NCBI GenBank assembly: GCA_024638805.1
Contig: JAHEJO010000001.1
Coordinates: 31,001-95,000 of the forward strand
From: Acidimicrobiales bacterium
Lineage (GTDB): Bacteria; Actinomycetota; Acidimicrobiia; Acidimicrobiales; SZUA-35
DNA: 64,000 bases
Reading direction: 5' to 3'
Positions 4,724 through 40,660 of this stretch are shown in pieces. Numbering within the stretch: position 1 is the first letter of the stretch; the number at the start of each line of letters is the position of its first letter. Made by a program: the position numbers and the translations under genes. The notes under the pieces were generated by a model. The model saw nothing but the letters and a program-made list of their open reading frames with translations. It searched no databases and was not told where the DNA came from.

Positions 4724-5862
4724 CCGACACGAGCGGTGCCACCACGCAACGGTGGCGTTTCCAGTGGAAAGAGCTTTACGACGAGGTCATCACGACCGGT
4801 CTGTGCACGGGATGCGCCGGCTGCGTGATCGCCTGTCCCCACGACGTGATCGGATACAAACACGAGCCGGGGGCGTACAAACCCTTCCACCTCGAGGCCG
4901 AACTCGGAGAAGGCGACTGTGGACACGGCCAGAACGGGTGCACATCCTGCACGAGGGCCTGCCCGCGCTTCAGGGACTGGGAGACCGCAGCGGATGAACA
5001 TCTCTTCGGTCGCACTCGTCACCCGGACGAGATGTCGGGCATCTACCGCGACATCCTCCTCGTGCGGGCCGCTGACGACGCCGTCTATCAGAACGGCCAG
5101 GACGGCGGGTTGGTCAGCGCAATCCTGATCTGGTGTCTCGACAACGACATCATCGACGGGGCCCTCGTATCGATGCTCGACGGTGACGCCGCCGGTTGGA
5201 AAGCCGTGCCGGGTGTAGCAACCACCAGAAACGAAGTGCTAGCGGCGTCGGGTAGCCGGTACACCTACTCGGCCAACACGATCGCCTACGACCAGGCCCG
5301 CGAGCGTGGCCTCGAGAGCCTGGCGCTCGTCGGCATGAGCTGTCAAACATCGGTTGCTCCGGTGATGTGGCACCGCAAGGTCGGCAAGGTGTCCAAGCCC
5401 ATCAAGCTCAACATCGGCCTGCTGTGCTCGAAGTCCTTCGACGATGCGCTCTTCGATGAGCTCTTCTGGACGAAGTACCGGTTGGCCAAGGATGACATCG
5501 TCAAGATGAACATCAAGGGCGTGTTCCAGGTGTGGATGCGCAACGGTGACTATCACGAGATCCCGCTCAAGGAATGCCATGCGTGGACCCGGGACGGCTG
5601 CAACCATTGCCCTGACTTCGCCGCCGAACATGCGGACATCTCGACCGGCGGGATCGGCAACGAAACCGACTGGACGCTGACCATCGTTCGCACCGACCTC
5701 GGGCGGGCCATCATCGATGCAATGCTGACCGACGGAGTGATCGAGACACGCCCCGGCGACGACGACCCGGCTGCTGTTGCACTCATGCGCCGCCTCGCCA
5801 AGAAGAGCCGGGAACGCTGGCCCGAGTGGGCACAGGAAGAAGTGCGCGTCGGGATTTCGTGA
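4720..5862 (+). CDS. Coenzyme F420 hydrogenase/dehydrogenase beta-subunit (FrhB) family protein with N-terminal 2x[4Fe-4S] ferredoxin motifs
   Basis: CTGCAGCVIACP and CTSCTRACP cluster motifs, followed by an FrhB-like body (GGLVSAIL..., CNHCPDFAAEHADISTGG). Confidence 0.75.
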   Translation: MTDTSGATTQRWRFQWKELYDEVITTGLCTGCAGCVIACPHDVIGYKHEPGAYKPFHLEAELGEGDCGHGQNGCTSCTRACPRFRDWETAADEHLFGRTRHPDEMSGIYRDILLVRAADDAVYQNGQDGGLVSAILIWCLDNDIIDGALVSMLDGDAAGWKAVPGVATTRNEVLAASGSRYTYSANTIAYDQARERGLESLALVGMSCQTSVAPVMWHRKVGKVSKPIKLNIGLLCSKSFDDALFDELFWTKYRLAKDDIVKMNIKGVFQVWMRNGDYHEIPLKECHAWTRDGCNHCPDFAAEHADISTGGIGNETDWTLTIVRTDLGRAIIDAMLTDGVIETRPGDDDPAAVALMRRLAKKSRERWPEWAQEEVRVGIS

Positions 5863-6530
5863 GTTCGCTCGACGCCATGGCCGACGCCGTGGCCGACTGT
5901 CGACGGTGCCCGCGGTTGGTGCAGTGGCGTGAGCTGATAGCCACCGAGAAACGGGCGGCGTTCGCCAAGGAGGACTACTGGGGCCGTGGCGTCGCCGGTT
6001 TCGGTGATCCCGACGCTCGGCTCATGGTGGTGGGGCTCGCCCCAGCCGCCCACGGCGCCAACCGGACCGGCCGGATGTTCACCGGCGACCGAAGCGGCGA
6101 CTGGCTCTACCGGGCGCTGTGGCGGGCCGGTTTCGCCAACCAGCCACTCAGCGTGGCGGCCAACGACGGCCTGGAGTTGAACGGGGTGTGGGTGACCTCA
6201 CCGGTCAAGTGCGCCCCGCCTGGTAACCGGCCCACGGCGAGCGAGGTCGCCAACTGCCGGCCCTACTTCGCCGAAGAACTACTACTGCTGAAACCACGGG
6301 TCCTCGTCGCGCTCGGTTCGGTCGGTTTCGCCTCGGTCGCCCGCCACTTCGACCTACGACCCCGTCCCCGCTTCGGACATGGCGCCGTCGTACGGATCGA
6401 TGACGAGACGACCCTTCTCGGTTGCTATCACGTGAGCCAGCAGAACACGTTCACGGGCCGACTCACCGAGAGCATGCTCGACGACGTCTTCACCCGCGCC
6501 CGGAGCCTGCTCGCCGAGCCCGGCTCCTGA
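5859..6530 (+). CDS. Uracil-DNA glycosylase superfamily protein, family 4/5 (UdgB-like)
   Basis: CRRCPRL, then VVGLAPAAHGANRTGRMFTGDRSG and YHVSQQN motifs. The GTG start overlaps the upstream stop (GTGA). Confidence 0.85.
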   Translation: MSSLDAMADAVADCRRCPRLVQWRELIATEKRAAFAKEDYWGRGVAGFGDPDARLMVVGLAPAAHGANRTGRMFTGDRSGDWLYRALWRAGFANQPLSVAANDGLELNGVWVTSPVKCAPPGNRPTASEVANCRPYFAEELLLLKPRVLVALGSVGFASVARHFDLRPRPRFGHGAVVRIDDETTLLGCYHVSQQNTFTGRLTESMLDDVFTRARSLLAEPGS

Positions 6531-9390: not shown

Positions 9391-10046
9391 CAGCTGAGGA
9401 TCAGGGACGAGAGGTCATCGCCGGTCGAGTTGACCGCCAAGACGCGGGGCCCGAACGGTGTGAACAGGATCGCCGAAATCGAGCACGGTCCGATGACGAT
9501 GCGCTGGAACAGATCGAGGTGGGTACCCATGGCGTCCGCCACGGCGGCCTTGATCGGGTCGGCATGGCTCACCGCCACCACGCGGTCGCCGGGGTGCTCG
9601 GCAACGATCTCGTGAAGGACGCCGGAAACCCGTTGCTGCATCTCGGCGAACGATTCACCGCCCGGGAACCGAAAGCTGCTCGGGTAGTTCTGGACCCGCT
9701 GCCATTCGGGCAACTTCGACAGCTCCGACAGCTTCCGGCCGGTCCATTCCCCGAAGTCGGCTTCGATCAGGCCCTTCCGCACAAGAACGCGCTGATGCAG
9801 CGCCCGGCCGATCGGTTTGGCGGTGTCACGCGTTCGTTCCATCGGCGATGCGTACACCGCAGCAAACGAGTCGGCCCCGAGTCCGGCCAGTCGTAGGGCG
9901 GCACGCCCGGCCTGCTGCAGGCCCTCTTCGGAAAGGCGAAGACCCCTGGCGCGTCCGGGCAGTACGGATCCGGTCGTTGGGGTCTTGCCGTGCCTCACCA
10001 GAAAGACGGTCGTCGGCTTGGGAGGCTTGGGCTTCTTGGCTGCCAT
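9390..10046 (-). CDS. Histidine phosphatase family protein (MSMEG_4193-type putative phosphomutase)
   Basis: VFLVRHGKT catalytic RHG motif and the ...VAVSHADPIKA second His motif. ATG at 10046 (MAAKKPKPPK). Confidence 0.85.
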   Translation of the reverse strand: MAAKKPKPPKPTTVFLVRHGKTPTTGSVLPGRARGLRLSEEGLQQAGRAALRLAGLGADSFAAVYASPMERTRDTAKPIGRALHQRVLVRKGLIEADFGEWTGRKLSELSKLPEWQRVQNYPSSFRFPGGESFAEMQQRVSGVLHEIVAEHPGDRVVAVSHADPIKAAVADAMGTHLDLFQRIVIGPCSISAILFTPFGPRVLAVNSTGDDLSSLILS

Positions 10047-10206
10047 AACGCAGCACCACGGTACCGGCGCCGACCGATGGAAGGGCAGAGCGCACACCCC
10101 AGCTCGCGGTCGTGCCGGATGGCACAGCGGCGACCGCGTCGGAGTGCATCTCGATTGCGCTGTCGCACGAAGATAGGAGTGACACTCTTACTCTGGAGGA
10201 AACCAC

Positions 10207-10428
10207 ATGCCCGCCCTTCCCCAAGACGTCCGGCTGAGAATCCCGTTCATCGTTGCCGGATTTGCCTCGTTCCTCTTCTCGGTCTACCTGTATTTTGTGC
10301 AGGACGATCAGATGGCCGGGATCTTCGTTGGACTGTGGGTCCCGTCGATCCACTCGTTGGGCACGCTCCTACTCGGCCCCGTGGACACGCCTGCGCCGAG
10401 CAGCCAGACCGAGCAGGTCCCATCATGA
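10207..10428 (+). CDS. Small membrane protein (2 predicted TM helices)
   Basis: IPFIVAGFASFLFSVYLYFV and GIFVGLWVPSIHSLGTLLLG hydrophobic spans. RBS-like CTGGAGGAA upstream. Confidence 0.5.
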   Translation: MPALPQDVRLRIPFIVAGFASFLFSVYLYFVQDDQMAGIFVGLWVPSIHSLGTLLLGPVDTPAPSSQTEQVPS

Positions 10429-10604
10429 GCGAGACGACCATCTTCATCGTGGGTGTGATCGTCTTCGCCATCACCATCTACGGCGCCGTCATGGCCGGTG
10501 GAATCGCCCTGACCCGGGCCGAGATCGAGCAGAACCCGCGGCGAGAGAGAGGCTTCGCCGACGAGGACCTCAAGAAGCGCTTTCCGTTCCGGGGCAGGTA
10601 CTAG
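10425..10604 (+). CDS. Small membrane protein (59 aa, 1 TM)
   Basis: MSETTIFIVGVIVFAITIYGAVMAGGIAL. Its ATG overlaps the upstream stop (ATGA). It is hidden inside a longer out-of-context track ORF. Confidence 0.45.
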   Translation: MSETTIFIVGVIVFAITIYGAVMAGGIALTRAEIEQNPRRERGFADEDLKKRFPFRGRY

Positions 10605-10662
10605 ACAGCCAAAGAGCTCGGCGCGTACCGAAACCCGCCGCTCGTCGCCGGCCGCGCAGATG

Positions 10663-11115
10663 TCACCCGCTGGTCCGTTCGGGTGAGGCAACCGACTCCA
10701 CGGTGACGACGATCGAACCCTGCCCGGTCAGGGCGCCGAGGAGTGCGAAATCAACCTCGGCGCTAAGCGAAACGACCAGGTCGTTGGGAATACCGTCGCC
10801 ATCGCGCACCTGCACCTCACTCGTGGACGAGATCGCCTGGCCGCCGACCGAGTCGATCGTGCGGTCGGCCACCAAAGGGGCGAGGACAGGATCCAGGACC
10901 AATTGCCCGGTCAGCCGGTACTGGGCGATGTCGATCGCGTTGGCGCCGGCACTCGCTGCCGCATCGGCGCGGTGAAGGAGATCCTGGCGAACCGTGATGA
11001 CACGCCACAGGTCGATACTCATCGCGCCGACGGAGAGAATCAGGACGACGAGTCCGAGGCCGAACACCGTCACCGATCCATCCTCGCTTCCTCGGCCGGC
11101 ACGCCACCAGATCAT
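10663..11115 (-). CDS. TadG/TadE-like pilus assembly (pseudopilin-like) protein
   Basis: N-terminal GSVTVFGLGLVVLILSVGAMSIDLWRV is typical of the TadG-like N-terminal domain. ATG at 11115 overlaps the upstream stop by 4 nt. Confidence 0.7.
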   Translation of the reverse strand: MIWWRAGRGSEDGSVTVFGLGLVVLILSVGAMSIDLWRVITVRQDLLHRADAAASAGANAIDIAQYRLTGQLVLDPVLAPLVADRTIDSVGGQAISSTSEVQVRDGDGIPNDLVVSLSAEVDFALLGALTGQGSIVVTVESVASPERTSG

Positions 11116-11552
11116 TCGGGAATCCGCGCGTAGGTCGGGTATCGCTCGGTATGTCGGGCGGTGTAGTGGAACGAGCCGAAGTCGAAGAACACCACGGCTC
11201 GCAACCGGACGGAAACCTCGATGTCGACCATCGAACCCAACGTTGCAGTTGGACGGGCAGAGGTGACCGACAAGGTCCCAACCTCCAAACGATGGCTCCG
11301 CTCGACCATGCTGACCGCCTCGTCGACCGATCCTTGGTCGCCACCGCTGAGCACGAATGCACGACCGGCTTCCGCCGCCGCGTCGTCGGCGGCATGCGCA
11401 CCCCGAATCCACGTGGGGACCGTCAGGACGATGAAGGCGAACGGCACGATAACCAAACCGATCAGCAGCGGCAGTTCGAGCACTGCAGAGCCGCGCTCGC
11501 CGGCCCGTTCGGCTCGGCCCGGGCACTGCGAACGGGTACTCCGAACCCTCAT
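11112..11552 (-). CDS. TadE-like protein
   Basis: ERGSAVLELPLLIGLVIVPFAFIVL TadE N-terminal motif. 4-nt overlaps with both neighbours. Confidence 0.75.
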   Translation of the reverse strand: MRVRSTRSQCPGRAERAGERGSAVLELPLLIGLVIVPFAFIVLTVPTWIRGAHAADDAAAEAGRAFVLSGGDQGSVDEAVSMVERSHRLEVGTLSVTSARPTATLGSMVDIEVSVRLRAVVFFDFGSFHYTARHTERYPTYARIPE

Positions 11553-11944
11553 GGCGGAAGTCGCTCGGTGACCGCCACCGCTCGGACTTCGAAGGACCAG
11601 TCAGGCGAAAACGGGACCCAGCGGTTGAACGTCACCGGCACCACGAGTTCGGTGAACTCAGGCCCACGGGAACAGCGGGGTTCTCCCACACCCCTACCGA
11701 GACTGCCGCCGAGGAGGGCCATCCGCGCTCTGTCGAACACAACGCTGCACGCCGAGTCATCGGAGCCGTGGGCCGCCGATGCCCGAACCGCATCGTTGGC
11801 CGCGGCTCGAACGGCGCCCTCGCCGTACTGCCAAACGGCGAACTGGGCGATGAGGACGAACGCCACGAACATGACGCTGATCGCCAGGATCCCCGAGAGG
11901 ATGACGGCGCCGCGCTGATCGTCGAGATCGGAAGCGAGCGGCAC
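11549..11944 (-). CDS. TadE-like protein
   Basis: QRGAVILSGILAISVMFVAFVLIAQFAV N-terminal hydrophobic segment. Position in the tad operon. Confidence 0.7.
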   Translation of the reverse strand: MPLASDLDDQRGAVILSGILAISVMFVAFVLIAQFAVWQYGEGAVRAAANDAVRASAAHGSDDSACSVVFDRARMALLGGSLGRGVGEPRCSRGPEFTELVVPVTFNRWVPFSPDWSFEVRAVAVTERLPP

Positions 11945-11948
11945 GACC

Positions 11949-12134
11949 TCAGCCAGTGATCATGTCCCGGATCGACTCCAGCACGGTGCTGCCGATATCG
12001 GTCATCCCGGCCATCAGAGCGACGATGACCCCCACCGCCATCGCGGCGAGGCCGAGATACTCGATCACCCCGGCCCCGCGCTCCGCGGTCCGACGTTCTG
12101 ACCATGTGCGGCTATGTGTGACATATGTTGCCAT
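11949..12134 (-). CDS. flp: Flp family type IVb pilin precursor
   Basis: 61 aa. Flp motif ERG/AGVIEYLGLAAMAVGVIVAL (G-xxxxEY). Strong RBS GGAGAGGAAG upstream on the minus strand. Confidence 0.85.
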   Translation of the reverse strand: MATYVTHSRTWSERRTAERGAGVIEYLGLAAMAVGVIVALMAGMTDIGSTVLESIRDMITG

Positions 12135-12177
12135 TTCGCTTCCTCTCCACTGATTGTCATGTCGATCTGACGTGGCC

Positions 12178-13116
12178 TCACGGTGCGACCCCGAAGACGA
12201 GGGACGGCAGCGCAGCGGCCACGAACAGGATCATCACCGGCGTGATGAACAGGAGTAAAGGGACGAGCATGGCGGTTCGCCTTTTCACCGCCCGACGGGC
12301 GATGTCCTGCTTGCGCTCGAGTCGCAGATCCTCCGCAACCGACAGCAGCGAGGAGCTGATATCGCCGCCAGTGGTGGCAGAGGCTGCCAGCAAACGATAC
12401 AGCCGGGCGGCGGCCGGTTCTTCGGTCGCCTCGGCCAGCCGGTCGTAGGCCTTCTGAGCGGGCGTTCCCGACGAGATCCACGAAACAGCTTCGGTCAGCT
12501 CTACGGCCACGGGACCCGTTGCCCGTCCGCACACCGAACCCACCGCATCCACCGGTCCACTGCCGGTTCTGAGTCGCACGGCAATCAGCTGGGCGATCGT
12601 GTAGACCTCGCTCCGCATGCTCTCGGCTCGGCGCTCGGTCGCCGATGAGAGCCGGCCTCGTTCGATGGTGGCCCCATAGAACCCGAAGCAGGCCATGAAG
12701 AGCGTTGACAGCCACACACTCCCGAAGACGAGGCCGAGAACGACTCCGACGGTGAGACCGCCGATCGCGTGGGCCAGCTGACGAATTCGGTATTGGGAAG
12801 GATCTGTGTCGGTGTACCCGGCGTTGCGGAGGCGACGCTCGAGCGTCTCGTGATCGGCAGCGTCGACCAGTTGACCGAGATGACCGGCGACCCGATCGAG
12901 AAGGGGACCCACGACCCGCCCTATCGGCGTCCTGTCGTCCCCGCCGGTCAGCGCTACCACCGAGATGTCCATGTGTCCGGTGCCGAGTCTGGACCGCGAC
13001 AACGCGGCATACGGAAGCACCCGACCGCCGAGGGGTCGGCGAGGAGGCACGATCGCCCGTGTCACCAGCACGGCAAAGCCGGCTGCGACGATAGCGGCGA
13101 CGAAACCTGCGGTCAC
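12178..13116 (-). CDS. tadC: Type II secretion system F family protein, TadC
   Basis: Polytopic membrane protein with a T2SSF-like C-terminal region (AEDLRLERKQDIARRAVKRRTAMLVPLLLFITPVMILFV). GTG at 13116 overlaps the tadB stop (GTGA). Confidence 0.75.
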   Translation of the reverse strand: MTAGFVAAIVAAGFAVLVTRAIVPPRRPLGGRVLPYAALSRSRLGTGHMDISVVALTGGDDRTPIGRVVGPLLDRVAGHLGQLVDAADHETLERRLRNAGYTDTDPSQYRIRQLAHAIGGLTVGVVLGLVFGSVWLSTLFMACFGFYGATIERGRLSSATERRAESMRSEVYTIAQLIAVRLRTGSGPVDAVGSVCGRATGPVAVELTEAVSWISSGTPAQKAYDRLAEATEEPAAARLYRLLAASATTGGDISSSLLSVAEDLRLERKQDIARRAVKRRTAMLVPLLLFITPVMILFVAAALPSLVFGVAP

Positions 13117-13997
13117 CGCTGGCCCGCCGAGGTCAGAATCCGGTGCTCGACGGGGAGTCGACCGAGCCGGTTGATGGTGACGAGTCCGCCCATGCACAGG
13201 AGCCCTCCGAGACCGATCACCAGCCAACCGGCGCCGGTTCTGTAGAACGCGGCGTACTCGTTCGATGTGGCGATCAGAAGGAACAGGACGGCGAATGGCA
13301 TGATCGCCGCCCCCCGGGCCTCGATCTTGATCTCGAGTTGCGCGGTGCGGATGTCATCGCGAAGTGCAAGGTCGCCAGCGGTGGCGGCCGCCAGGTCGCC
13401 GAGCACGTCGATGACGACGGCCGGCCCCTGTTCGAAGGCGACGAGGATGATCTCGATCACACGGTCGCTGACCGGATCGGCCAGTTCCTCGCGAACGATC
13501 TGGAGCGAGGTGCGCTGGCCGAGCGTCGCCGCCAACCCGGCGTAGCGGTTGAAGTGGGGGCGGAGCGCGAGCGGTCCGCTGGTACCGAGTTCGACGAGCG
13601 CAGCGTGAACCGACATCGAAGACCGGAGGTGTGCGATCAGATCACGAAGAGCGTCGGGCCAGGCGTCGATTCGTTCACGCTCCAACGCGGCGCGGCGGCG
13701 CCCGTAGAACGAACGTGGCAGCCACAGACCGAGACCACCGGCGACCAGAGCGAACGGTGCAACGCCGGTCACGGCCTGAACGACGAGCGAAACAGACGCC
13801 GCCAGGCCGATCGAGACCGCGATGAATTGTGAGGGCGTCACGTCGACCCCGGCTTGGCGTAGCCACTCACGGGTGCGGTGCCGACGTGGTTGGGTCCGGG
13901 AGGTCGATCGCTCGAGGAACCGGGGGGTGATCCCGACGAGCGCGCCGAGGGAAAGGTAGACGAACAGTCCCGCCGACAGCCCTGCGAGCAGTTTCAT
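13113..13997 (-). CDS. tadB: Type II secretion system F family protein, TadB
   Basis: MKLLAGLSAGLFVYLSL... and a T2SSF-like body. ATG at 13997 overlaps the tadA stop (ATGA). The 480-aa track ORF extension is antisense-type Arg-rich sequence. Confidence 0.8.
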   Translation of the reverse strand: MKLLAGLSAGLFVYLSLGALVGITPRFLERSTSRTQPRRHRTREWLRQAGVDVTPSQFIAVSIGLAASVSLVVQAVTGVAPFALVAGGLGLWLPRSFYGRRRAALERERIDAWPDALRDLIAHLRSSMSVHAALVELGTSGPLALRPHFNRYAGLAATLGQRTSLQIVREELADPVSDRVIEIILVAFEQGPAVVIDVLGDLAAATAGDLALRDDIRTAQLEIKIEARGAAIMPFAVLFLLIATSNEYAAFYRTGAGWLVIGLGGLLCMGGLVTINRLGRLPVEHRILTSAGQR

Positions 13998-15298
13998 GAA
14001 TGGTTCTCGCCGCCGCTCAGCAGTTCCATCGTGGTCAAACCGTGGGGAGCCAGAACCAGGTCGAGCCGCTGCTCGAGGTCGACCGGCAATCGAGCACCAG
14101 TCCATTCGAGTTCGTGGTCGAAGGACCGGCGCTGGAAGATCGGTTCGACCGTGAAGTTGAATTCGTTCGTCGGCATGGCCGGAACAGCGAGGATCTCCAT
14201 CACCTTGCGCCGTCCACCGGCACCGCCGACAACGGCCGCCGACGGCTCCTTGGCCGTGTGGACGACAACATCGATGATGCTCGAGAACACGCTGCAGACG
14301 TGCTCGAGCGCCACGTTGGGCCCGGCCATCGTGGCGGTCGAGACGAGAGCCCGCAGACCCTGTCGTGCACTGTTGGCGTGGATCGTGCTCAGCATGCCGG
14401 CTCCGGCGTTTCCGGCCCGGGTCAGTTCGTATGCCTCGGCCCCTCGCACCTCGCCGACCACGATCAGATCGGGTCGCATCCCGAGCGAGACCTTCACCAG
14501 ATCGCGAAGGGTGACCTCGTTGGCACCGTCGGGTCCGGCCGGGCGCGTCCGCCAACGAGCGGCGTGGAGGTGATCCACCGACACCTCCGGCGTGTCCTCA
14601 CATGCGATCACCCGGAGTGTGGGGGGTGCTGCACGCAGCATCGCATTCACGAGCGTGGTCTTACCGGAACCGGGTTGGCCGGTGACGATGACCCCGGTCG
14701 GCGTGGCCATCATGGCGCCGAGCAGGCGAGCGGCCGGCTCGCTGATCGAGTGCCAGTCGATCAGTTCCTGGAAGCTCTCTCGTTTGGAGAGGTACCGCCG
14801 GATCGTGACGTCGATCGCATCCGCGATCGGCGGGAGCACCACGCCGATACGGGCCGTTCCATCCAGGATCTGGGTCTGGACGACCGGCCTGCTCTCGTCG
14901 ACCGCCTGCCCGACCGTGGCCAGCAGCTTGTGAACGACGTGGGTGACCTCCTCCTCGCTCACAGGGTCGGGCCATGCCAGCATCCGTCCGTCGGCGTCGA
15001 CGTACGTGACGTTCGAACCGTGAATGATCAGTTCCTCGTACTTCAACGAGCCGTCGAGGAACGGCGTCAGCGGTCCGAACTCGAAGAGGCTGCGAGCGAG
15101 TCGACTCATCATCGCCGCGGGATCGGACAGGGGCCGCCCGGTACCGCCGGAGGTCGCGTCGGCCTGGTACTGATTCACGAGCTGCTGAATCAACGCTCGC
15201 ACCTCGCCGCGCTCGCGCAGATCGATGCTGAGAAGTCGGATCGCTTCGAGGGCCTGGTAGCGAAGATCCTCGTAGGCGTCGGTGACGGCGGTGCTCAT
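13994..15298 (-). CDS. tadA: CpaF/TadA family secretion ATPase
   Basis: Walker A GQPGSGKTTLVNAML, Walker B region LRVIACEDTPE, and His-box-like GMLSTIHANSA. ATG at 15298 overlaps the upstream stop. Confidence 0.9.
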   Translation of the reverse strand: MSTAVTDAYEDLRYQALEAIRLLSIDLRERGEVRALIQQLVNQYQADATSGGTGRPLSDPAAMMSRLARSLFEFGPLTPFLDGSLKYEELIIHGSNVTYVDADGRMLAWPDPVSEEEVTHVVHKLLATVGQAVDESRPVVQTQILDGTARIGVVLPPIADAIDVTIRRYLSKRESFQELIDWHSISEPAARLLGAMMATPTGVIVTGQPGSGKTTLVNAMLRAAPPTLRVIACEDTPEVSVDHLHAARWRTRPAGPDGANEVTLRDLVKVSLGMRPDLIVVGEVRGAEAYELTRAGNAGAGMLSTIHANSARQGLRALVSTATMAGPNVALEHVCSVFSSIIDVVVHTAKEPSAAVVGGAGGRRKVMEILAVPAMPTNEFNFTVEPIFQRRSFDHELEWTGARLPVDLEQRLDLVLAPHGLTTMELLSGGENHS

Positions 15299-32390: not shown

Positions 32391-32870
32391 CTACGGCTCA
32401 GGATCCGAGCTCAAGCGTGACAGAAGCGCCGACATCACCTCGATATCCCCGGGGTCGAAACGGTCGACGAGGTGTCGACGGACCGAGTCCACATGACCGG
32501 GGGCGGCCGACTCGAGACGGGCGACGCCGTCATCGGTCAGGACGGCGAAGAACCCGCGACGGTCCTCCGGGCACCGTTCCCGCGCCACCAGCCCGAGTTT
32601 GACCATTCGGTCGACCCGCATACTGAGACGGCTCGCCGAGTGGACGGTTCGTTCGGCAAGCTCACTCATGCGAAGACGGCGCTCCGGAGACTCTGACAGC
32701 TCGACGAGGACCTCGTAATCCCCGAAGGTGAGTCCGGCTGACCTCTTCAGGTCGTGCTCGATCGCCTCGGCGATACGGGCGGTGCCGGTCATCCACCGAC
32801 GCCAGAAGGCCTGCTCGGCTTCGTTCAACCAGTTGGTGCCGCCAGGAGACGAATGTGACACAACCCACAC
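32391..32870 (-). CDS. MarR family transcriptional regulator
   Basis: FGDYEVLVELSESPERRLRMSELAERTVHSASRLSMRVDRMVKLGLV. Paralogous in pattern to the regulator at 27990. Confidence 0.85.
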   Translation of the reverse strand: MWVVSHSSPGGTNWLNEAEQAFWRRWMTGTARIAEAIEHDLKRSAGLTFGDYEVLVELSESPERRLRMSELAERTVHSASRLSMRVDRMVKLGLVARERCPEDRRGFFAVLTDDGVARLESAAPGHVDSVRRHLVDRFDPGDIEVMSALLSRLSSDPEP

Positions 32871-32949
32871 GATACCACCCGTGCGCTTTGATTCAGAATT
32901 GAACTATATTACTTTCAATATTGAACTACTTGCCCGAGGAGGCACCTGC

Positions 32950-33498
32950 ATGACCATCAACGAATCCCCCACGCTCAGCACCGGCACCTGGACCATCGAT
33001 CCGACCCATACCGAAATCGGCTTCGTTGTCCGCCACATGGGCCTCTCCAAGGTACGAGGCCGCTTCAACGCCTTCGTCGGCGCGGCGGACATCGCCGATG
33101 ACCTCACCACCTCGGCGGTTCATGCATCGATCGACATGGCATCGGTGGACACCAACAACGAACTGCGCGACAACCACCTGAAGAGCACCGACTTCTTCGG
33201 CGCCGACAACCATCCGCAGATGGTCTTCCGGTCCACCGCTATCAACGGCAACGGCTCCGAAGGGATCATCTCCGGTGACCTGACGGTCAATGGCGTCACC
33301 AAGGGTGTCGATCTCGAGACCGAGTTCTTCGGTGTCGGCGTCGACCCCTACGGCAACGTCAAGGCCGGCTTCGCGGCCACAACCCAGATCAGTCGCAAGG
33401 ACTTCGGGATCGACTTCAACGTTCCGCTCGACGCCGGCGGCGTGCTGATCGGCGACAAGGTGACGATCGAGCTCGACGTGCAGTTGGCCAGGAGCTGA
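32950..33498 (+). CDS. YceI family protein
   Basis: WTIDPTHTEIGFVVRHMGLSKVRGRF and GDLTVNGVTK are typical YceI motifs. ATG at 32950 lies inside a longer track ORF. Confidence 0.85.
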   Translation: MTINESPTLSTGTWTIDPTHTEIGFVVRHMGLSKVRGRFNAFVGAADIADDLTTSAVHASIDMASVDTNNELRDNHLKSTDFFGADNHPQMVFRSTAINGNGSEGIISGDLTVNGVTKGVDLETEFFGVGVDPYGNVKAGFAATTQISRKDFGIDFNVPLDAGGVLIGDKVTIELDVQLARS

Positions 33499-33516
33499 CT
33501 CGCGGCCCGAGCCCGG

Positions 33517-33543
33517 CTAGGAGGTTGCTGAGCAATCTCCTAG
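33517..33543. terminator. Putative bidirectional hairpin between the convergent yceI-like and ridA-like genes
   Basis: CTAGGAGgTTGC-tga-GCAAtCTCCTAG inverted repeat (about 11 bp stem with one mismatch). No clear U-tract. It overlaps the ridA-like stop codon. Confidence 0.4.
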
Positions 33544-33914
33544 CGCTGGGCGACGAGCTCGATCTCGATGTCAGACCCGAGCGGTAGCTGGGCGACAGCG
33601 ACGGTGCTGCGGGCCGGATAGGGCTCGGAGAACTGTCGCTCGTAAACCTCATTCATCGCTGCGAAGTCGGACATGTCGATCAGGAAGACGTTGACCTTCA
33701 CGACATCTTCGGGACCCAGGTCACCGGCGGCGAGAACGTCGAACAGGTTGTCGAAGCATTTCTGGGTTCGAGCACCGATGTCGCCGTCGATCAGGCGGCC
33801 GGTGGCAGAGTCCAAAGGGGTCTGACCGCTGAGAAAGACGAGGGTGCCGGTGTCGACGGCGTGACTGTAGGGGCCGACCGAGGAGGCGGTGGGACTGGTG
33901 ATCGGATTGCGCAT
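33540..33914 (-). CDS. RidA/YjgF/UK114 family protein
   Basis: GPYSHAV..G.LVFLSGQ and VEIELVA motifs of the RidA family. Confidence 0.85.
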   Translation of the reverse strand: MRNPITSPTASSVGPYSHAVDTGTLVFLSGQTPLDSATGRLIDGDIGARTQKCFDNLFDVLAAGDLGPEDVVKVNVFLIDMSDFAAMNEVYERQFSEPYPARSTVAVAQLPLGSDIEIELVAQR

Positions 33915-34045: not shown

Positions 34046-36160
34046 GTGGTGTTCCGGCAGCTGAGCGTGAAGTCCAAGCTGCTGGCAACCGTTTTGGGGA
34101 TCTCCATCTCCTCGGTTCTGATCGTCGCCGTGATCAGCTTCACTCAGAGTCAACGGTCGCTCAGCGACGCTGTCCTGCGGAACCAGGTCGCCCAGCTCCA
34201 GTCACGCACCGAGCTCATACAGCGCTTCATCTCTTCGATCGACGACGAGGCCTCGACCCTAAGCCAGGACCGGGGGGTCGCGACAGCGTCGGCCGAGTTC
34301 GCCGTCGCCGCCCAGCAGCTGGCCGGACAGGCAACCGATCCTGCGTGGGACGAGGCGGCGACGAACTTCTACACCGAGCTGGTCGAAGGACTACCCCAGA
34401 CCGATCGACTGGTCACGGTGAACGCCGACCAATACGTACCTCGAGATCCGGTTGCCCGCTATCTGCAGCACTACTACACCGTGACCAATCCCGACCCGGA
34501 CAGGAGTCAGCTCGACGACCCGGGCGATGACTCCTTCTACAGCAGGGTCCACAGCCGTTTCCACCCGTCGTTTCGAGCGATCGCAGAACGCTTCGGTTTC
34601 ACCGACATCTACCTGATCGAACCGGAGAGCAACCGGATCGTCTATTCGGTGAACAAAGACGTCGATTTCGGCACCAGCCTCGCCTCGGGACCCTGGGGCC
34701 GAAGTGCACTGGCCGACGTCGTGAAGGAGGTCGAACGAAACCCGGTGCCCGGCAGCACGAGCTTCTCCGACCACGAGTTCTACCGACCCACACTCGACGA
34801 ACCGGCAGCGTTCGTCGCGGCCCCGGTCTTCAACCAGGTCGACCAGGGCCTGCTCGGCATCATCGCCCTTCAGTTACCGTTGGCCGAGATCGATCGGGTC
34901 ATGACCTCCGACTCAAACTGGGTCGATGCCGGATTCGGGCAGACGGGGGAGACCTACCTCGTCGGCGCCGATCTGCTCATGCGATCCCAATCCCGAACAC
35001 TGGCCGAGGATCCGGAGCGCTTCCGGGCCGAAAGCCCCCTCGCCGTCACCCAACCCGAAACGCTTGAACGGATCATGACCCAAGGCAACACGGTTCTGCT
35101 CCAGCCGGTTCGGAGTGCCGCCGCCCAGCGGGCGCTGTCGGGCCAGACCGGCACCGCCGTCGTCACCAGCTATCACGGGGGCATCACATTGAGCAGCTAC
35201 GGACCTCTGGATCTTCCGGGCGGCCTCCGGTGGGTGATCATCGCCGACCAGTCGCTGTCGGAGTCCGAAGCCCCGGTGAACGACCTCCAGCGTGCGCTGC
35301 TCATCGCCACCGGTCTCATCCTGCTCATCCTCACGGGCATCGCAATGTTGATGGCCGCCCGGTTCACGCGACCACTCCTCCGCCTGATCGATTGGACCGG
35401 TCGCGTCGGCGATGGCGATCTGAGCGCCGACGTACCTGTCACCGGCGGCGACGAGATCGGGCAGCTGGCGGAATCGGTGGACTTGATGGTCGACAACCTG
35501 AGGACACAGAGCGAGACGATCGACAGCCAACGCACCGAGATGCAGACGCTGATCCTCAACCTCATGCCACCCCAGATCGCCGACCGGCTGGCCGGTGGCG
35601 ACACCCAGGTCGCCGACGCCTATCCGAATGTCACGATGGTCGTCGCCCAGTTGAGCGGTTTCAGCCGGTACACCCGCGTCGCGTCCCCGGGGGAGGGAAA
35701 GGAGTTGCTCGACGAGGTGATCGGCAGCTTCGACGAGGTGGCCGCCGACCTGGGAATGGAGAAGATTCGCGGCAGCAGCGCCGGGTATGTGGCCGCCTCG
35801 GGTCTACTCGAACCCCGTCTCGACCAGCGTCAACGGGCCATGCAGTTCGCGGTGGCGATCGACCAGAAACTGGAGGTGCTCACCAAGTTCAACAAATCGG
35901 ATCTCGAACTGCGGATCGGAGTTGCCTCCGGTGATGTCGAGGCCGGGATCGTTGGCCAGAGTCAGATCAGCTTCGAGGTGTGGGGCGACCCGGTCAGCGA
36001 TGCCTCGGCTCTTGCCGAGGCGGCTCCACCCGGGTCCGTGCTCGTTGCCAAGGACATCGCCGATGCCCTGCGCGAACGATTCCCGTTCGACGCGTTCGAC
36101 ACGGTGAACTCCGATGGGCAGCCGATCGAGGCGTGGCGCTGGACAGGGAGTGACAACTGA
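34046..36160 (+). CDS. Membrane sensor: periplasmic Cache-like domain, HAMP, and class III cyclase-homology domain (catalytic residues appear substituted)
   Basis: TM1 LLATVLGISISSVLIVAVISF, about 370 aa extracytoplasmic, TM2 LLIATGLILLILTGIAMLMAA. HAMP: RFTRPLLRLIDWTGRVGDGDL...IGQLAESVDLMVDNL. CHD: VTMVVAQLSGFSRYT...RIGVASGDVEAGIVG...VWGDPVSDASALAE. Confidence 0.75.
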   Translation: MVFRQLSVKSKLLATVLGISISSVLIVAVISFTQSQRSLSDAVLRNQVAQLQSRTELIQRFISSIDDEASTLSQDRGVATASAEFAVAAQQLAGQATDPAWDEAATNFYTELVEGLPQTDRLVTVNADQYVPRDPVARYLQHYYTVTNPDPDRSQLDDPGDDSFYSRVHSRFHPSFRAIAERFGFTDIYLIEPESNRIVYSVNKDVDFGTSLASGPWGRSALADVVKEVERNPVPGSTSFSDHEFYRPTLDEPAAFVAAPVFNQVDQGLLGIIALQLPLAEIDRVMTSDSNWVDAGFGQTGETYLVGADLLMRSQSRTLAEDPERFRAESPLAVTQPETLERIMTQGNTVLLQPVRSAAAQRALSGQTGTAVVTSYHGGITLSSYGPLDLPGGLRWVIIADQSLSESEAPVNDLQRALLIATGLILLILTGIAMLMAARFTRPLLRLIDWTGRVGDGDLSADVPVTGGDEIGQLAESVDLMVDNLRTQSETIDSQRTEMQTLILNLMPPQIADRLAGGDTQVADAYPNVTMVVAQLSGFSRYTRVASPGEGKELLDEVIGSFDEVAADLGMEKIRGSSAGYVAASGLLEPRLDQRQRAMQFAVAIDQKLEVLTKFNKSDLELRIGVASGDVEAGIVGQSQISFEVWGDPVSDASALAEAAPPGSVLVAKDIADALRERFPFDAFDTVNSDGQPIEAWRWTGSDN

Positions 36161-37683
36161 TGCTCGGCCGCTCGATCTTCGCCGAGCCGTGGTTCCAGTG
36201 GGCTCTGGTCCTCGTCTTCGGTTTCCCGGTGGTGGTGATCCTGCTCGGCGAGATCCTCGCCCGTCTGGAACGGCGCAAGAGCCTCCTCGTCGGTCCGGTC
36301 CGCCTGCTCAGGAACGCTTTCGTCCCGCTGCTCGTCGTCATCCTGTTCCTCCAGCAGGTGCTGGAATTGGATCCCAACGGCGCGGAGGACCCGAACGGGC
36401 TCATCCAGGTAGCTGCCACGATCGTCGCCGTGGCCAGCCTGGCGGTGCTGCTATCGATCGTGCGGGGCATCATCACCGCCGAGCAGTCGCCCACCAGTTG
36501 GCGGGGACGGGCGCCGCGTCTGCTGGTGGACATCGCCCGGTTCGTCCTCCTCGGGGTCGGCTCCCTCCTCATCCTCACCAGCATCTGGGGGCTGAGCATC
36601 ACCGGCACGTTCGCGGCCCTCGGCATCGGCGGGCTTGTCATCGGCCTGGCGCTGCAGGACACGCTGGCCAGCCTGATGGGCGGGATCGCCATACTCAGCG
36701 AGAAACCCTTTGCCGTAGGCGACTGGATCGACATCGACGGCACCGAGGGCAAAGTCACCGACATCAACTGGCGGACCGTGCGAATGCTCAACCGCGAACA
36801 GGACCTCATCGTCGTGCCGAACATCGTGTTCGGCAATCAGTTGATCATCAACAACTCACGCCCCGAAATCGAGCACGTCGAGGTGATCTCACTCGGTTTC
36901 AGCTACGACGACCCGCCGAACGCCGTCAAGGCGATGCTGGCCGAGGTGGTGGCGGGCACACCCAACCTGGTGGCCGGCGCACCGCTCGACATCCGCTGCA
37001 CCAGCTACGACGACTTCTCCATCGGCTACCAGGTGTGGCTGCACATCGAATCGTACGACGTAATGCCGCAGGTGCGAAATCATTTCATGACCAGGATCTG
37101 GTACGCCGCAAAGCGCCGGAACATCACGATTCCGTTCCCGATCAGAACGGTTCACCACTACGAGGCCGGCGAGCTGCCGCGCAACGACACCCCCGAGCAG
37201 GTCCAGCGAAGGGTCCGATCACTCACGGGCACCACCATCGCCGAACCGGTCGCATCGAAGCTCGCCGACGAACAGGTCGTCGGTGAATCGGCCGGTGCCA
37301 ACTTGGACGACAACCACCTTCTCAGTTTCGCCGCCGGCGAGGTCCTCCAGCTCGAGGGAGGCGGCAGTCGGGGGTTGGGCATCATCCTTCGGGGAACGGC
37401 GGTCGGCCTTCGGGCGGACAACGAGGTGGTCACCATCCGGGCAGGTGAGGTGTTCGGGGAACAGGCGATGCTCGGCACCAAACCGAACCTCCTCACGATT
37501 CGTGCTCTGACCGACGTGGAGGCGATCGTGATCTCCGGGTCGGCGGTCGACGACATCGCCCGCGGGGATCTCGGTTTCGCCGAGGAGATCCAAGCCGTCG
37601 TTCAGAGCCGGCGTGCCGCGGTGGCCAGAACCAAGCTGAACCCGACCAACGGCAACGAACCCGAGACGGGTACGGGTCGGTGA
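36160..37683 (+). CDS. MscS-family mechanosensitive channel with C-terminal cyclic-nucleotide-binding-like domain
   Basis: MscS core LGIGGLVIGLALQDTLASLMGGIAILSEKPFAVGDWIDIDGTEGKVTDINWRTVRM. C-terminal CNB-like AGEVLQLEG...GEVFGEQAML. The ATG overlaps the upstream stop (TGATG). Confidence 0.8.
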   Translation: MLGRSIFAEPWFQWALVLVFGFPVVVILLGEILARLERRKSLLVGPVRLLRNAFVPLLVVILFLQQVLELDPNGAEDPNGLIQVAATIVAVASLAVLLSIVRGIITAEQSPTSWRGRAPRLLVDIARFVLLGVGSLLILTSIWGLSITGTFAALGIGGLVIGLALQDTLASLMGGIAILSEKPFAVGDWIDIDGTEGKVTDINWRTVRMLNREQDLIVVPNIVFGNQLIINNSRPEIEHVEVISLGFSYDDPPNAVKAMLAEVVAGTPNLVAGAPLDIRCTSYDDFSIGYQVWLHIESYDVMPQVRNHFMTRIWYAAKRRNITIPFPIRTVHHYEAGELPRNDTPEQVQRRVRSLTGTTIAEPVASKLADEQVVGESAGANLDDNHLLSFAAGEVLQLEGGGSRGLGIILRGTAVGLRADNEVVTIRAGEVFGEQAMLGTKPNLLTIRALTDVEAIVISGSAVDDIARGDLGFAEEIQAVVQSRRAAVARTKLNPTNGNEPETGTGR

Positions 37684-39137
37684 GCGCGACAGCGGCCCGG
37701 GCTCTGTCGGCCTGCCTTGTCACCCTACTGCTCGCCGGGTCCGCCTGCTCGGTCGAGGTCGCCGCGTTCGACCCGACCCGCCAAGAGGATGAAGGACGCT
37801 CGGACAGCCCGCTCGGCGGGCTCAGCGCCGTCGACGCAACCGACGCCGCAGATGTCGAGGGTCCGACCGCCCAGATCCGAATACCCCGATTCACCTACAC
37901 GGGATTCGATCCCACCGGTCCTGCCCTGGGTCAATTGGGTCGACTGGAGGGGAACATGGTGAGCGTCCTGGGACCCGAGGTGGGCGCCGGCCAGACGAGC
38001 CTCGAATCCGCATTCGCCCGCTTCACGACCGCAACCGGCATCGAGGTGGTCTACACCGGCGACACCCAGGCCGACGACGTCCTCGAAGAACTCCTGGGAA
38101 CACCCGACCAACCCGATGTTGTGCTGACCCCCCAGCCCGGTCGATTGCGGCAGCTGGTACACGAAGGCCACGTGGCGCCCCTCCCCCGGCTGATCCGGGA
38201 TCAGGTGGCCGCCGGGTACGACCCGTTCTGGTCGAGTCTGGCCTCGGTCGACGGGCGTCTCTACGGCGTGCCGGCCTCCGCCAACGTGAAGAGTCTGGTC
38301 TGGTACCGGCCTGATGTGTTCGCCGAGCAGGACTACCAGCCCCCCGCGACCTTCGGCGAACTCGAGGCACTGGTGGACCAGATCCGCAGCGACGGACTGA
38401 CGCCGTGGTGCGTCGGGGTTGCCTCCGGCGCAGATTCGGGATGGCCGTTCACCGACTGGCTCGAGGACTATGTCCTGCGTTTCGAGGGACCGGCCTTCTA
38501 CGACCAGTGGATCGCCCACCAGGTGCCCTTCAACGATGCCCGGGTCACCGCCCTGATGCAGCGGGTGGGCGATCTGTGGTCCCGACCGGGCAACGTGTAC
38601 GGGGGGCGGGAGGCGGTCGCCGCCACTTCGGTTTCGCAAGCTGCGGGGGATCATCTGCGGGACCGATGTGTCCTGCACAAACAGGGAAGCCTCATCGTGC
38701 GGGACTACCGAGTGCTCGGTGGACGGGTCGGTCCCGGCGAGGACGTCGACGCCTTCTATTTGCCCGACATCGGGGAGTCGGGTCGGGTGGTTCTGGGCGC
38801 CGGGACCTTCGCCGCCACCCTCAGCGGTTCCACACCCGCCCTGGGGTTGCTTTCGTACATCGCGGCGCCGGATTTCGCCGACAACCGAATCGCTGCGGGC
38901 GCCGGCGGCTACCTCAGCGCGCATCGTTTTCACAACACCGACCTGTACCGGGACGCGATCGACCGTTCGATGGCCAACATCCTGGTGGCAGCCGATCCTT
39001 TCCGCTTCGACGGCTCGGACCTGATGCCTGCTCAGGTCGGCGCAGACGTGTATCCCCGAACGGCCACGCTCTACGCCAGCGGAGCGATCGACGCGTGGGA
39101 ACTGGCCGACGAGGTGGAGGCAGCCTGGCCCAGCTGA
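37680..39137 (+). CDS. ABC-transporter-type extracellular solute-binding lipoprotein (family 1, sugar-type), orphan
   Basis: Lipobox LLLAGSAC-S. SBP-typical segments: DVVLTPQPG, GVPASANVKSLVWYRPDVF, TPWCVGVASGADSGWPFTDWLEDY. The GTG overlaps the channel gene's stop. No permease or ATPase genes are adjacent. Confidence 0.75.
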   Translation: MSATAARALSACLVTLLLAGSACSVEVAAFDPTRQEDEGRSDSPLGGLSAVDATDAADVEGPTAQIRIPRFTYTGFDPTGPALGQLGRLEGNMVSVLGPEVGAGQTSLESAFARFTTATGIEVVYTGDTQADDVLEELLGTPDQPDVVLTPQPGRLRQLVHEGHVAPLPRLIRDQVAAGYDPFWSSLASVDGRLYGVPASANVKSLVWYRPDVFAEQDYQPPATFGELEALVDQIRSDGLTPWCVGVASGADSGWPFTDWLEDYVLRFEGPAFYDQWIAHQVPFNDARVTALMQRVGDLWSRPGNVYGGREAVAATSVSQAAGDHLRDRCVLHKQGSLIVRDYRVLGGRVGPGEDVDAFYLPDIGESGRVVLGAGTFAATLSGSTPALGLLSYIAAPDFADNRIAAGAGGYLSAHRFHNTDLYRDAIDRSMANILVAADPFRFDGSDLMPAQVGADVYPRTATLYASGAIDAWELADEVEAAWPS

Positions 39138-39178: not shown

Positions 39179-40183
39179 ATGACCGCCCTCACCGATTCCT
39201 CGGAGATCGAGATCCGTCTGCCGTCGGCCCTCTGGCTGGCCAAACTCACCTCGTCCGACGATGCCGATGTCCTGCTGTCTCCGGTCACCGACGGCATTCC
39301 GACCTACTGGCTGCCGACCCCCTTGGCTACCTCGGCCACCTTCGGCGGGATTCTGTCACTGACCGATGTAGGCCACGGGATCGAACCCAATCTCTCCCCC
39401 CACGGCTCGCTTCCACTGCCCGGTGATCGGGTACTGGTCGCCCGCACGGGCCAGACCGTCGAGCTTCTCGGGGTTGTGGTCATCGACGGACTGAGCGTGT
39501 GCTCCGACGGGTCGATTCGTATCGGTCACCGGCCCCTCGTTCGTCTCGAGGACCCGCTCGACCTCCGCAAGGCGCGCCGCGTCAATCGCCTGCTCGATCA
39601 ACGATGGGATGCCCTCTTCGGCACCCGAGGTCGCGACCGCCGACTGCTTCCTCTTGGCGACGCCGACGTGACACTGACGTTCTCGGCCTTCGGAGTGTCG
39701 CTCCGGCAGATCTTCTCGTCGCCACCGTCGCCCGCAGCCGTCGCCGTGGTGCCGGCGCTACCGATCTGGAAGCTCGACGAACACATCGAACAGAGCCGGA
39801 TCTCCAGCTGCGTGGTCGCCGATCGTGTGGCCGACGGGGTGGCTGCCTATCACGCGCTCGGCGCGGCGTTCGCCGACTACGACGGTGTCCGGACCATCGA
39901 TCTGTCAGCACACGGGACCGGGCGCGGCCTGTTGCTGAGCGTGCACCACGTCGACCGCGTGTCGTACGTGGTCGCGTCGGGTGTGCCACTCGGCGAGCCC
40001 GTCCGCGTCAACGAGAGCCGTCGCCACCTTTTCACCGACGAGTCCACGGTCGTCCTGCTGGCGGTGGAACAACAGGAGGAGTGGGTGATCGTCGAGCTGG
40101 GGGGTGAGGAGCTCGAACGGCTCGACGGCGCTCTCGGTGATCGCATTGTCTCGATCCACCACCACATCGACGTTTCGGACTGA
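39179..40183 (+). CDS. Hypothetical protein (334 aa), no family recognised
   Basis: The ATG at 39179 was chosen. The upstream part of the 592-aa track ORF overlaps the SBP gene out of frame and is Arg/Gly-rich. The body has ordinary globular composition. Confidence 0.55.
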   Translation: MTALTDSSEIEIRLPSALWLAKLTSSDDADVLLSPVTDGIPTYWLPTPLATSATFGGILSLTDVGHGIEPNLSPHGSLPLPGDRVLVARTGQTVELLGVVVIDGLSVCSDGSIRIGHRPLVRLEDPLDLRKARRVNRLLDQRWDALFGTRGRDRRLLPLGDADVTLTFSAFGVSLRQIFSSPPSPAAVAVVPALPIWKLDEHIEQSRISSCVVADRVADGVAAYHALGAAFADYDGVRTIDLSAHGTGRGLLLSVHHVDRVSYVVASGVPLGEPVRVNESRRHLFTDESTVVLLAVEQQEEWVIVELGGEELERLDGALGDRIVSIHHHIDVSD

Positions 40184-40225: not shown

Positions 40226-40660
40226 GTGCAACACGGTTCTGGCCCAACCGCTGCGCTGGTGGCATCCCTGCTGATGGTCTTCGTCGCGTGCGGCTCCGAT
40301 CCGGTCGGCATGGGCACCCTCGCCGAGAGTCGCACCGCCGACGAACCCGTCGACGACCTGTTCCCCGATGTTGTCGACGCCACAGCCAGCCGCGCCGGCG
40401 ACGGGACATGGACGATCGCCGCCACACTGTCGTCCCCCTACGACAGCCCCGCACGCTACGCCGATTCGTGGCGGGTCCTCGGCCCCGACGGCACCGTCTA
40501 CGGCGAACGGTTCCTCACCCATGATCACGCCGGTGAACAACCGTTCACGCGATCCCAACCCGGGATCTCGATACCCGAGGAGGTAGAGACCGTCACGATT
40601 CAGGGTCGGGATCAGCGAAACGGTTGGGGTGGGGTCACCTTCGAGTTGGACCTCCGATGA
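40226..40660 (+). CDS. Putative lipoprotein
   Basis: LVASLLMVFVAC-GS lipobox. 144 aa. Its stop overlaps the next start (ATGA). Confidence 0.6.
   Translation: MQHGSGPTAALVASLLMVFVACGSDPVGMGTLAESRTADEPVDDLFPDVVDATASRAGDGTWTIAATLSSPYDSPARYADSWRVLGPDGTVYGERFLTHDHAGEQPFTRSQPGISIPEEVETVTIQGRDQRNGWGGVTFELDLR

Follow-up and report, generated by a model that had tools for sequence, protein, structure and literature searches.

What does a bacterial channel with a cyclic nucleotide-binding (CNB)-like domain respond to when the cyclase-like sensor encoded with it apparently cannot make a cyclic nucleotide? This question is raised by a locus in a 64,000-nucleotide stretch of an Acidimicrobiales bacterium (assembly GCA_024638805.1, contig JAHEJO010000001.1, positions 31,001 to 95,000 of the forward strand), which we designate the window and to whose first letter all coordinates refer. 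Its three genes are translationally coupled and form a membrane signalling module of Acidimicrobiales. They encode (i) a sensor with a class III cyclase homology domain (CHD), (ii) an MscS-family channel ending in a CNB-like domain, and (iii) a lipoprotein of the solute-binding protein (SBP) type. An initial annotation, made from the sequence alone, had described the first two genes and overlooked the third, which is coupled to them (37680–39137). Both open reading frames (ORFs) and the proposed architecture of sensor and channel were borne out by ORF and Pfam analysis (Guanylate_cyc, HAMP, MS_channel, and cNMP_binding), with the Cache domain scoring below threshold in the window.

The CHD of the sensor is a predicted pseudo-cyclase

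The sensor CHD matched Guanylate_cyc (PF00211) with an E-value of 7.9e-24 and 84.7 bits (cutoff 21.9), and its best PDB matches were the cyclases AC8/AC9 and Rv1625c. The AlphaFold2 (AF2) model of the sensor had a mean predicted local distance difference test (pLDDT) score of 84.7, with values of 84–95 in the CHD, which Foldseek superimposed on Rv1625c, M. intracellulare Cya (5o5k), and adenylyl cyclase (AC) C1/C2 with TMt values of 0.81–0.88. Similarity to NCBIfam models was generic for both proteins (HAMP for the sensor and MscS for the channel). The dCache_1 profile scored 20 bits on the window sensor, below its cutoff of 45, and up to 56.9 bits, above the cutoff, in orthologues and cyanobacterial partner sensors; PF02743 is annotated on most of the orthologues. 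In the AF2 model of the ectodomain, two alpha/beta modules come after a long stalk helix, a topology compatible with dCache; when the whole sensor model was submitted to Foldseek, most matches were to the CHD and gave no independent support for a dCache fold.

The catalytic positions were assigned through HMMER alignment to the solved AC8/AC9 cyclases, including both the C1 and the C2 halves, and are given below as a six-letter signature in the order metal Asp 1, Lys, metal Asp 2, substrate Asp, Asn, and Arg. The alignment placed MVVAQLSGF opposite ILFADVKGF, with Q535 at metal Asp 1; KIRGSSAGYV opposite RIKILGDCYY and KIKTIGSTYM, with A579 at metal Asp 2 and R575 at the substrate Lys; and FEVWGDPVSDASA opposite YDIWGKTVNLASR, with E644 at the substrate Asp, S651 at the Asn, and A655 at the Arg. 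The substitutions that had been read by eye (Q535, A579, S651, and A655) were thus all correct. The substrate-specifying pair R575/E644 follows neither the Lys/Asp pattern of ACs nor the Glu/Cys pattern of guanylyl cyclases. By our reading of the alignment among orthologues only, the C-terminal KGKG-type motif has lost its Lys as well (SDGQP), a residue that contacts the triphosphate in cyclases.

In a CHD active site, the Asp pair comes from one subunit and the Lys/Asp/Asn/Arg set from the other. The window CHD has neither residue set and therefore would complete no active site, even as part of a heterodimer. It shares the fold, the family, and the transmembrane (TM)-sensor-HAMP-CHD layout of the class IIIa membrane ACs (Rv1625c and mammalian AC C1/C2), but with its four catalytic and both substrate-specifying residues replaced it supplies neither half of the site. 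We conclude that the sensor CHD is a predicted pseudo-cyclase, catalytically dead with its fold retained.

The CNB-like domain of the channel has an altered phosphate-binding cassette

The channel matched MS_channel_2nd (E-value 1e-17, 64.4 bits) and MS_channel_3rd, and its cNMP_binding (PF00027) match scored 38.5 bits (cutoff 27.5). Its PDB matches in phmmer were MscS and YnaI, which were also the top Foldseek matches. The AF2 model (mean pLDDT 85.5) has five predicted TM helices, and the CNB-like domain was modeled as a beta-roll plus C-helices with a pLDDT of around 90. Leu residues occupy the channel positions aligned to the pore residues L105 and L109 of E. coli MscS. A look-up of the window channel by exact sequence returned no match.

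In the alignment to the CNB domains of PKA/PKG, FGEQAMLGTKPNLLTIRA lies opposite FGELALLKNKPRAATIKA. The F-G-E motif persists, but N443 stands in place of the phosphate-clamping Arg, so that the phosphate-binding cassette (PBC) reads P-N-L-L where P-R-[ST]-A is expected, as had been noted by eye. The CNB-like domain is 67–81% identical among close orthologues, and the PBC stretch NLLTIRALTDVEA is almost invariant across the orthologues of the clade. Judged by this alignment, the domain does not have a canonical PBC.

The fold of the CHD is conserved while its catalytic positions vary

The module is kept in related genomes. The sensor orthologues (P0002–P0009) are 58–64% identical to the window sensor, the channel orthologues on the same contigs are 67–73% identical to the window channel, and the order sensor, channel, SBP with its overlapping junctions is the same in every Acidimicrobiales locus examined (L001–L012), down to relatives with 41–48% channel identity. 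Sensor and channel genes are intact and coupled in the orthologues of 58–73% identity and in these distant relatives alike.

Every CHD of these loci is degenerate, and the residues at the catalytic positions differ from one to another (QRAESA, NRSESG, HSGESA, KKDEEQ, and RKPETL). Among the orthologues, the former metal positions hold Q/H/N/T/K/R and A/G/S/W/R/D/P, the former Asn position S/A/E/T, and the former Arg position A/G/T/E/L/Q. Both metal positions are non-Asp in the close orthologues P0002–P0009; a more distant type (L003) has Lys at the first metal position and keeps Asp at the second, and the channel of this type has lost the F-G-E motif (FVAVS). The initial annotation had asked whether orthologous pairs keep the same order and substitutions, and the answer is divided: gene order is kept and the PBC stretch hardly varies, whereas the catalytic positions of the CHD carry differing residues.

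The CHD is nevertheless the most conserved domain of the sensor, with 64–76% identity among orthologues compared with 56–60% for the Cache ectodomain and 43–58% for the HAMP domain. E644 is invariant in the clade, and the flanking motifs FEVWG and EAGIVG are conserved. By contrast, the two former metal positions lie at the 91st and 98th percentiles of column variability within the CHD. A conserved domain with variable metal columns is the signature of a pseudoenzyme, in which scaffold and surfaces are selected and the catalytic positions are released; the CHD fold is under strong purifying selection while its catalytic positions drift. The earlier suggestion of repurposing rather than decay is favored by this pattern and by the nearly invariant PBC.

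The view that the pair is a decaying relic, a pseudogene or remnant kept in the operon by chance, would draw on the loss of all catalytic residues and on the frameshifts in the CHD gene of the related metagenome-assembled genomes (MAGs) L006 and L012. In the MFD03551 MAGs, however, many single-base differences by insertion or deletion from the window occur in all genes of a syntenic region (L012:4843-12854, and likewise L006 and L009) and break the CHD, channel, or SBP ORFs, a spread over genes that is typical of assembly error. The 614-residue protein P0101, a CHD tail joined to a channel with 87% identity, was considered as a natural fusion, which would have spoken for physical coupling, and rejected because the alignment of the L012 DNA to the window showed indels throughout. 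These frameshifts and the P0101 fusion are most likely errors of long-read assembly. The window copy of the gene is unbroken, as are those of at least 9 orthologues, its CHD is the best conserved part of the sensor, and the AF2 model is a confident cyclase fold. On the conservation of the CHD and the CNB-like domain we rejected the relic, to which we would give hardly any chance.

Arg-less cassettes go with pairing in the wider family

A genome scan with the channel profile, limited to one genome per species, returned 80 loci: 8 from Acidimicrobiales, about 70 from cyanobacteria, and one unclassified. Of the 80 channel genes, 72 have a same-strand CHD gene encoding roughly 700 residues upstream, which is the immediate neighbor except in three cases, and the four upstream genes checked by Pfam all have the dCache-HAMP-CHD layout. 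TGATG or ATGA overlaps occur at 38 of about 78 junctions, and most of the others have gaps of less than 70 nucleotides. The pair is also found in Frigoribacterium faeni (Microbacteriaceae), in a Chloroflexota MAG, and on a low-GC contig. The pair of sensor-CHD gene followed by MscS-CNB gene is old and widespread, and the window module descends from it.

Most cyanobacterial partner CHDs read either DKDDNA, in which the Arg alone is missing, or DKDDK-x, and a further group, without the second Asp, reads DKSDN[RHQ]. The fully canonical signature DKDDNR was found in one pair (L085), and none of the channel-adjacent cyanobacterial CHDs of the 80-locus scan has all six canonical residues. The Chloroflexota partner has lost its catalytic residues. 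Catalytic residues have been lost in more than one paired lineage.

In a cyanobacterial clade (L014, L028, L044, L050, L070, and L075), the signature is NKSD[VAI][YH], both metal Asp residues, the Asn, and the Arg being gone, and the channels have lost the Glu of F-G-E as well (FFGYSAVLANEPTPMTVTA). This clade appears to represent a second loss of catalysis, separate from that in Acidimicrobiales. Complementary defects also occur among the cyanobacterial CHDs of L013–L084 (DKDDNA versus DKSDN[RHQ], for example L032:4671-6965 and L042:225-2375), and if one CHD of each type joined in a heterodimer, a single full active site could in principle be restored, as in mammalian C1/C2.

The PBC Arg is missing from every CHD-paired channel, including that of L085 beside its DKDDNR cyclase; the replacement is Ser in most cyanobacteria and Asn in Acidimicrobiales and L085. 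An exhaustive profile search gave 5,041 cluster representatives of the channel at E<1e-30, and the canonical PBC GEPR[ST]A is present in 20 of the 136 best full-length representatives. None of the four GEPR[ST]A channels whose context was looked up has a CHD neighbor. Setting 72 of 80 Arg-less channels with a partner against 0 of 4 Arg-bearing ones gives a Fisher probability, calculated by hand, of about 3e-4, a value that ignores relatedness and includes only four Arg-bearing loci.

The initial annotation had pictured a joint loss of the maker and the reader of the nucleotide. This picture is not supported, because paired channels do not have the Arg even beside near-canonical cyanobacterial cyclases and the one canonical cyclase. 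The Arg-less PBC goes instead with pairing and not with loss of cyclase chemistry, and it was later, and more than once, that catalysis was lost within the paired lineage. The channels of a Crocosphaera/Cyanothece subgroup (L022, L035, L037, L051, L054, and L063) have an Arg-less PBC (GECSDVSV) and no CHD gene upstream, and so depart from the association of the Arg-less PBC with pairing.

An orphan binding lipoprotein completes the Acidimicrobiales module

The product of the third gene matched SBP_bac_1 (PF01547) with an E-value of 1.8e-15 and 58.2 bits, and in the PDB it was best matched by sugar-binding lipoproteins, 3vxb and AcbH among them. A signal peptide with Cys was present in all four cassette SBP copies examined. 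Every Acidimicrobiales cassette has the SBP gene directly after the channel gene, and no cyanobacterial locus does; the SBP was recruited in a lineage whose cyclase is completely dead.

No permease or ATPase gene lies beside the SBP gene in the window or in the other cassettes examined. Metagenomic relatives of the SBP with 33–45% identity have a CHD or channel gene upstream in 0 of 80 cases, which rules out an SBP family invariably bound to the cassette. Two such relatives that we examined (L090 and L127) belong to operons of the order LacI, SBP, two permeases, GH13, and MalK. Because no permease gene is adjacent and the relatives stand in complete sugar ABC operons, the cassette SBP is, on its sequence relationships, best described as an orphan offshoot of the binding proteins of alpha-glucoside-type ABC transport.

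Locus layout and neighboring genes

The coordinates of the module are given in Table 1. The initial annotation had reported a TGATG overlap between the sensor and channel genes and placed it at 36157–36162; the overlap exists, and the range was one base too long. At this junction (AACTGATGCTC), the TGA stop (36158–36160) and the ATG start (36160–36162) share one base. At the next junction, the GTG start of the SBP gene overlaps the channel stop (GTGA, 37680–37683).

Table 1. Positions of the module's genes, domains, and motifs in the window.
Feature	Position	Strand	Evidence
Gene 1, sensor, TM-dCache-TM-HAMP-CHD, predicted pseudo-cyclase, 704 aa	34046–36160	+	ORF, Pfam, AF2
dCache-like extracytoplasmic ectodomain, about aa 35–410	34148–35275	+	Subthreshold dCache_1, AF2
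HAMP, aa 435–487	35348–35506	+	Pfam (1e-15, 58.2 bits)
Class III CHD, aa 523–691	35612–36118	+	Pfam, HMMER, Foldseek
TGATG stop/start overlap, sensor/channel	36158–36162	+	Sequence
Gene 2, YnaI-like 5-TM MscS-family channel with C-terminal CNB-like domain, bCNG architecture, 507 aa	36160–37683	+	
MscS core (pore helix TM3, beta domain, alpha-beta domain), aa 125–330	36532–37149	+	Pfam MS_channel_1st, 2nd, 3rd
CNB-like domain, aa 389–467	37324–37560	+	Pfam cNMP_binding
Altered PBC FGEQAMLGTKPNLLTIRA, N443 at the phosphate-clamping Arg site	37453–37506	+	PKA/PKG alignment
Gene 3, predicted orphan SBP_bac_1 (CUT1-type) lipoprotein, 485 aa	37680–39137	+	Pfam SBP_bac_1

Upstream of the cassette (32391–33914) lie genes for a MarR regulator (− strand), YceI (+), and RidA/L-PSP (−). 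They are syntenic in the closest relative (L012) only and absent from the other cassette loci, and are therefore outside the module. Two + strand ORFs at the 3' side of the SBP gene (39260–40183 and 40226–40660) have no Pfam match, the second with an N-terminal lipoprotein-like signal (…LLMVFVACGSD…); neither is kept beside the cassette in the distant Acidimicrobiales loci L001–L003.

Other loci of the family have neighbors of different kinds. In the Chloroflexota MAG (L088), the pair of dead CHD and channel is followed by a gene for a 1121-residue MFS/HEAT protein with its own cNMP_binding domain (9730–13095) and then by a PBP_like_2 binding protein gene (13101–14163), which may be different third and fourth partners of the core pair. 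A gene for a globin-pentapeptide-repeat protein follows the canonical pair of L085 (9987–11339). In the cyanobacterial locus L031, CHD genes flank the channel gene on both sides, with EKDDNA upstream (105–2180) and DKDDND downstream (5130–5930, at the contig end). Two proteins of about 2,650 residues (P0330 and P0332) gave 16 separate matches to the CNB part of the profile, as though each were a giant array of CNB-like domains.

Discussion

We tentatively favor, at a little under an even chance, the interpretation that the locus is a hard-wired sensor–channel module from the bCNG family, which signals without cAMP through direct contact between the CHD and the CNB-like domain. In such a module, the SBP lipoprotein would bind a solute from outside the cell (probably a sugar or disaccharide) and dock on the dCache ectodomain (or the ectodomain might bind the ligand itself); the HAMP domain would relay the change to the CHD dimer; and the dimer would act directly on the CNB-like domains beneath the channel cage and bias gating, with no cyclic nucleotide made. 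In the ancestral pair, a reader weakened by the missing PBC Arg may have heard only its own co-assembled cyclase. Once a CHD–CNB contact existed, catalysis would have become dispensable and could then have been lost several times.

Two known systems offer analogies. The CNB homology domain of KCNH channels (EAG/hERG) is a CNB fold that is blind to nucleotides and gates its channel through contact with another domain. The likeness is functional, without evidence of mechanistic homology, and the KCNH channels differ in being eukaryotic and voltage-gated and in carrying the partner domain within the same polypeptide. In LuxP-LuxQ, a periplasmic binding protein docks on the tandem-PAS/dCache-like ectodomain of a sensor. 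The module resembles this system in that an orphan binding protein gene lies beside a dCache-type sensor gene with no transporter genes; the output is a histidine kinase in LuxP-LuxQ and a pseudo-cyclase plus channel here. By this analogy, the SBP would be a co-receptor of the sensor.

Several points weigh against the hard-wired module. The CHD–CNB contact itself is inferred, and it would require a dimeric CHD to act on a heptameric channel; adjacency and co-conservation prove co-function and not direct interaction. The pairing statistic comes from four Arg-bearing channels with kinship ignored, and the co-receptor role of the SBP rests on the LuxP-LuxQ analogy together with its orphan status. 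The F-G-E motif kept in the close clade leaves room for an unconventional nucleotide or another small ligand. In addition, cAMP gating of bCNG channels was reported in 2010.

The strongest alternative, which we consider unlikely though still a serious contender, is that the two proteins are co-expressed without contact: the CNB-like domain would bind a diffusible ligand (cAMP in a non-canonical manner, or another metabolite), and the sensor would have another target or help in assembly or localization. CNB-fold domains of the CRP/FNR superfamily bind many ligands, the F-G-E motif and the beta-roll persist in the close clade, and the canonical PBC in 20 of 136 representatives indicates that cyclic nucleotide reading exists in the family. 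However, no paired channel has the PBC Arg, and the L003-type cassette has not kept F-G-E either; the tight overlap and the strict co-inheritance across phyla point to stoichiometric co-assembly, and a dead CHD that is the best conserved domain needs a partner or a ligand as its explanation.

We regard it as improbable that the CHD still performs chemistry or binds a nucleotide, through relocated residues, on an unusual substrate, or as a sensor of ATP or another metabolite, with the CNB-like domain reading the outcome. Pseudoenzymes sometimes have relocated catalytic residues (PMC10211241). The invariant E644 lies at the purine-specifying position, and the conserved FEVWG and EAGIVG motifs would also suit this explanation. 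The loss of both metal Asp residues, the Asn, and the Arg, together with the replaced KGKG-type Lys, argues against it, as do metal positions that vary freely among orthologues, unlike those of a relocated active site, and two dead half-sites, from which, given the mechanism of CHD dimers, no heterodimer could rebuild an active site.

A Pycsar-like anti-phage pair, in which a cyclase acts with a CNB-domain membrane effector, has a similar layout of a CHD gene beside a gene for a CNB-bearing membrane protein and gave weak PADLOC matches to PycC (24.8 and 19.8 bits), but we rejected it with the least chance of all since these matches reflect domain similarity of a generic kind, and since the CHD is devoid of catalytic residues and belongs to a transmembrane dCache-HAMP sensor. 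The neighborhood, moreover, is of the housekeeping kind and syntenic in a related genome, and both in Acidimicrobiales and in cyanobacteria the pair is conserved by vertical descent. Pycsar-like defense and plain decay are essentially excluded.

The statement of the initial annotation that it knew of no such described system was overstated. MscS-type channels with a C-terminal CNB domain have been published as the bCNG family (Caldwell 2010 and Malcolm 2012, as cited in PMC13591265), and a study of marine Synechococcus mentioned in passing, in 2020, cyclase genes near a "cAMP-regulated MscS" (PMC7522525). The window channel shares with bCNG channels the MscS core, the variable linker, and the C-terminal CNB domain, and its closest sequence relatives are the cyanobacterial members; it differs in that the PBC Arg is replaced (by Asn, and by Ser in most cyanobacterial relatives) and in the translational coupling of its gene to one for a sensor-CHD protein and, within this clade, to one for an SBP. 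The gene neighborhood in Synechococcus is similar, and the present scan shows the pair to be tight and widespread; that study assumes regulation by cAMP and contains no analysis of catalytic or PBC residues or of the actinobacterial variant with dead cyclase and SBP (PMC7522525). A text search of the literature for bacterial pseudo-cyclases returned nothing specific. A literature search that did not reach the primary bCNG papers gave no description of the cassette of dead cyclase and orphan SBP, of the rule that paired channels do not have the Arg, or of the repeated loss of catalysis.

A bolder generalization, which we think may hold but is on balance unlikely, is that most bCNG channels are output subunits of hard-wired dCache-HAMP-CHD/MscS complexes rather than readers of free cAMP, with nucleotide chemistry optional and repeatedly discarded, and that the Acidimicrobiales cassette would be the extreme case with its own lipoprotein co-receptor.

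According to a 2026 review, no bCNG channel has a solved structure, and what cyclic nucleotides do in the gating of these channels is not understood (PMC13591265). The locus and the family pattern bear on this gap, in that the partner gene and the CNB-like domain are kept where the partner apparently cannot make the nucleotide. The canonical phosphate clamp was seen only in channels that stand alone (four checked), which suggests a split of the family into readers of free cAMP and partner-locked channels. The sensor is a predicted bacterial pseudo-cyclase, with the fold selected and the catalytic positions drifting, and related pairs are carried by cultured organisms, among them Frigoribacterium faeni, Synechococcus, Pseudanabaena, and Planktothrix. 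The module offers a candidate route by which an extracellular ligand of the sugar type could act on an MscS-type valve, a matter of interest for osmolyte release. If the bolder generalization were true, it would provide the first cyclase/CNB domain pair acting as a protein–protein switch, and hard-wired complexes of this type would be a new bacterial means of coupling an extracellular chemical signal to solute flux.

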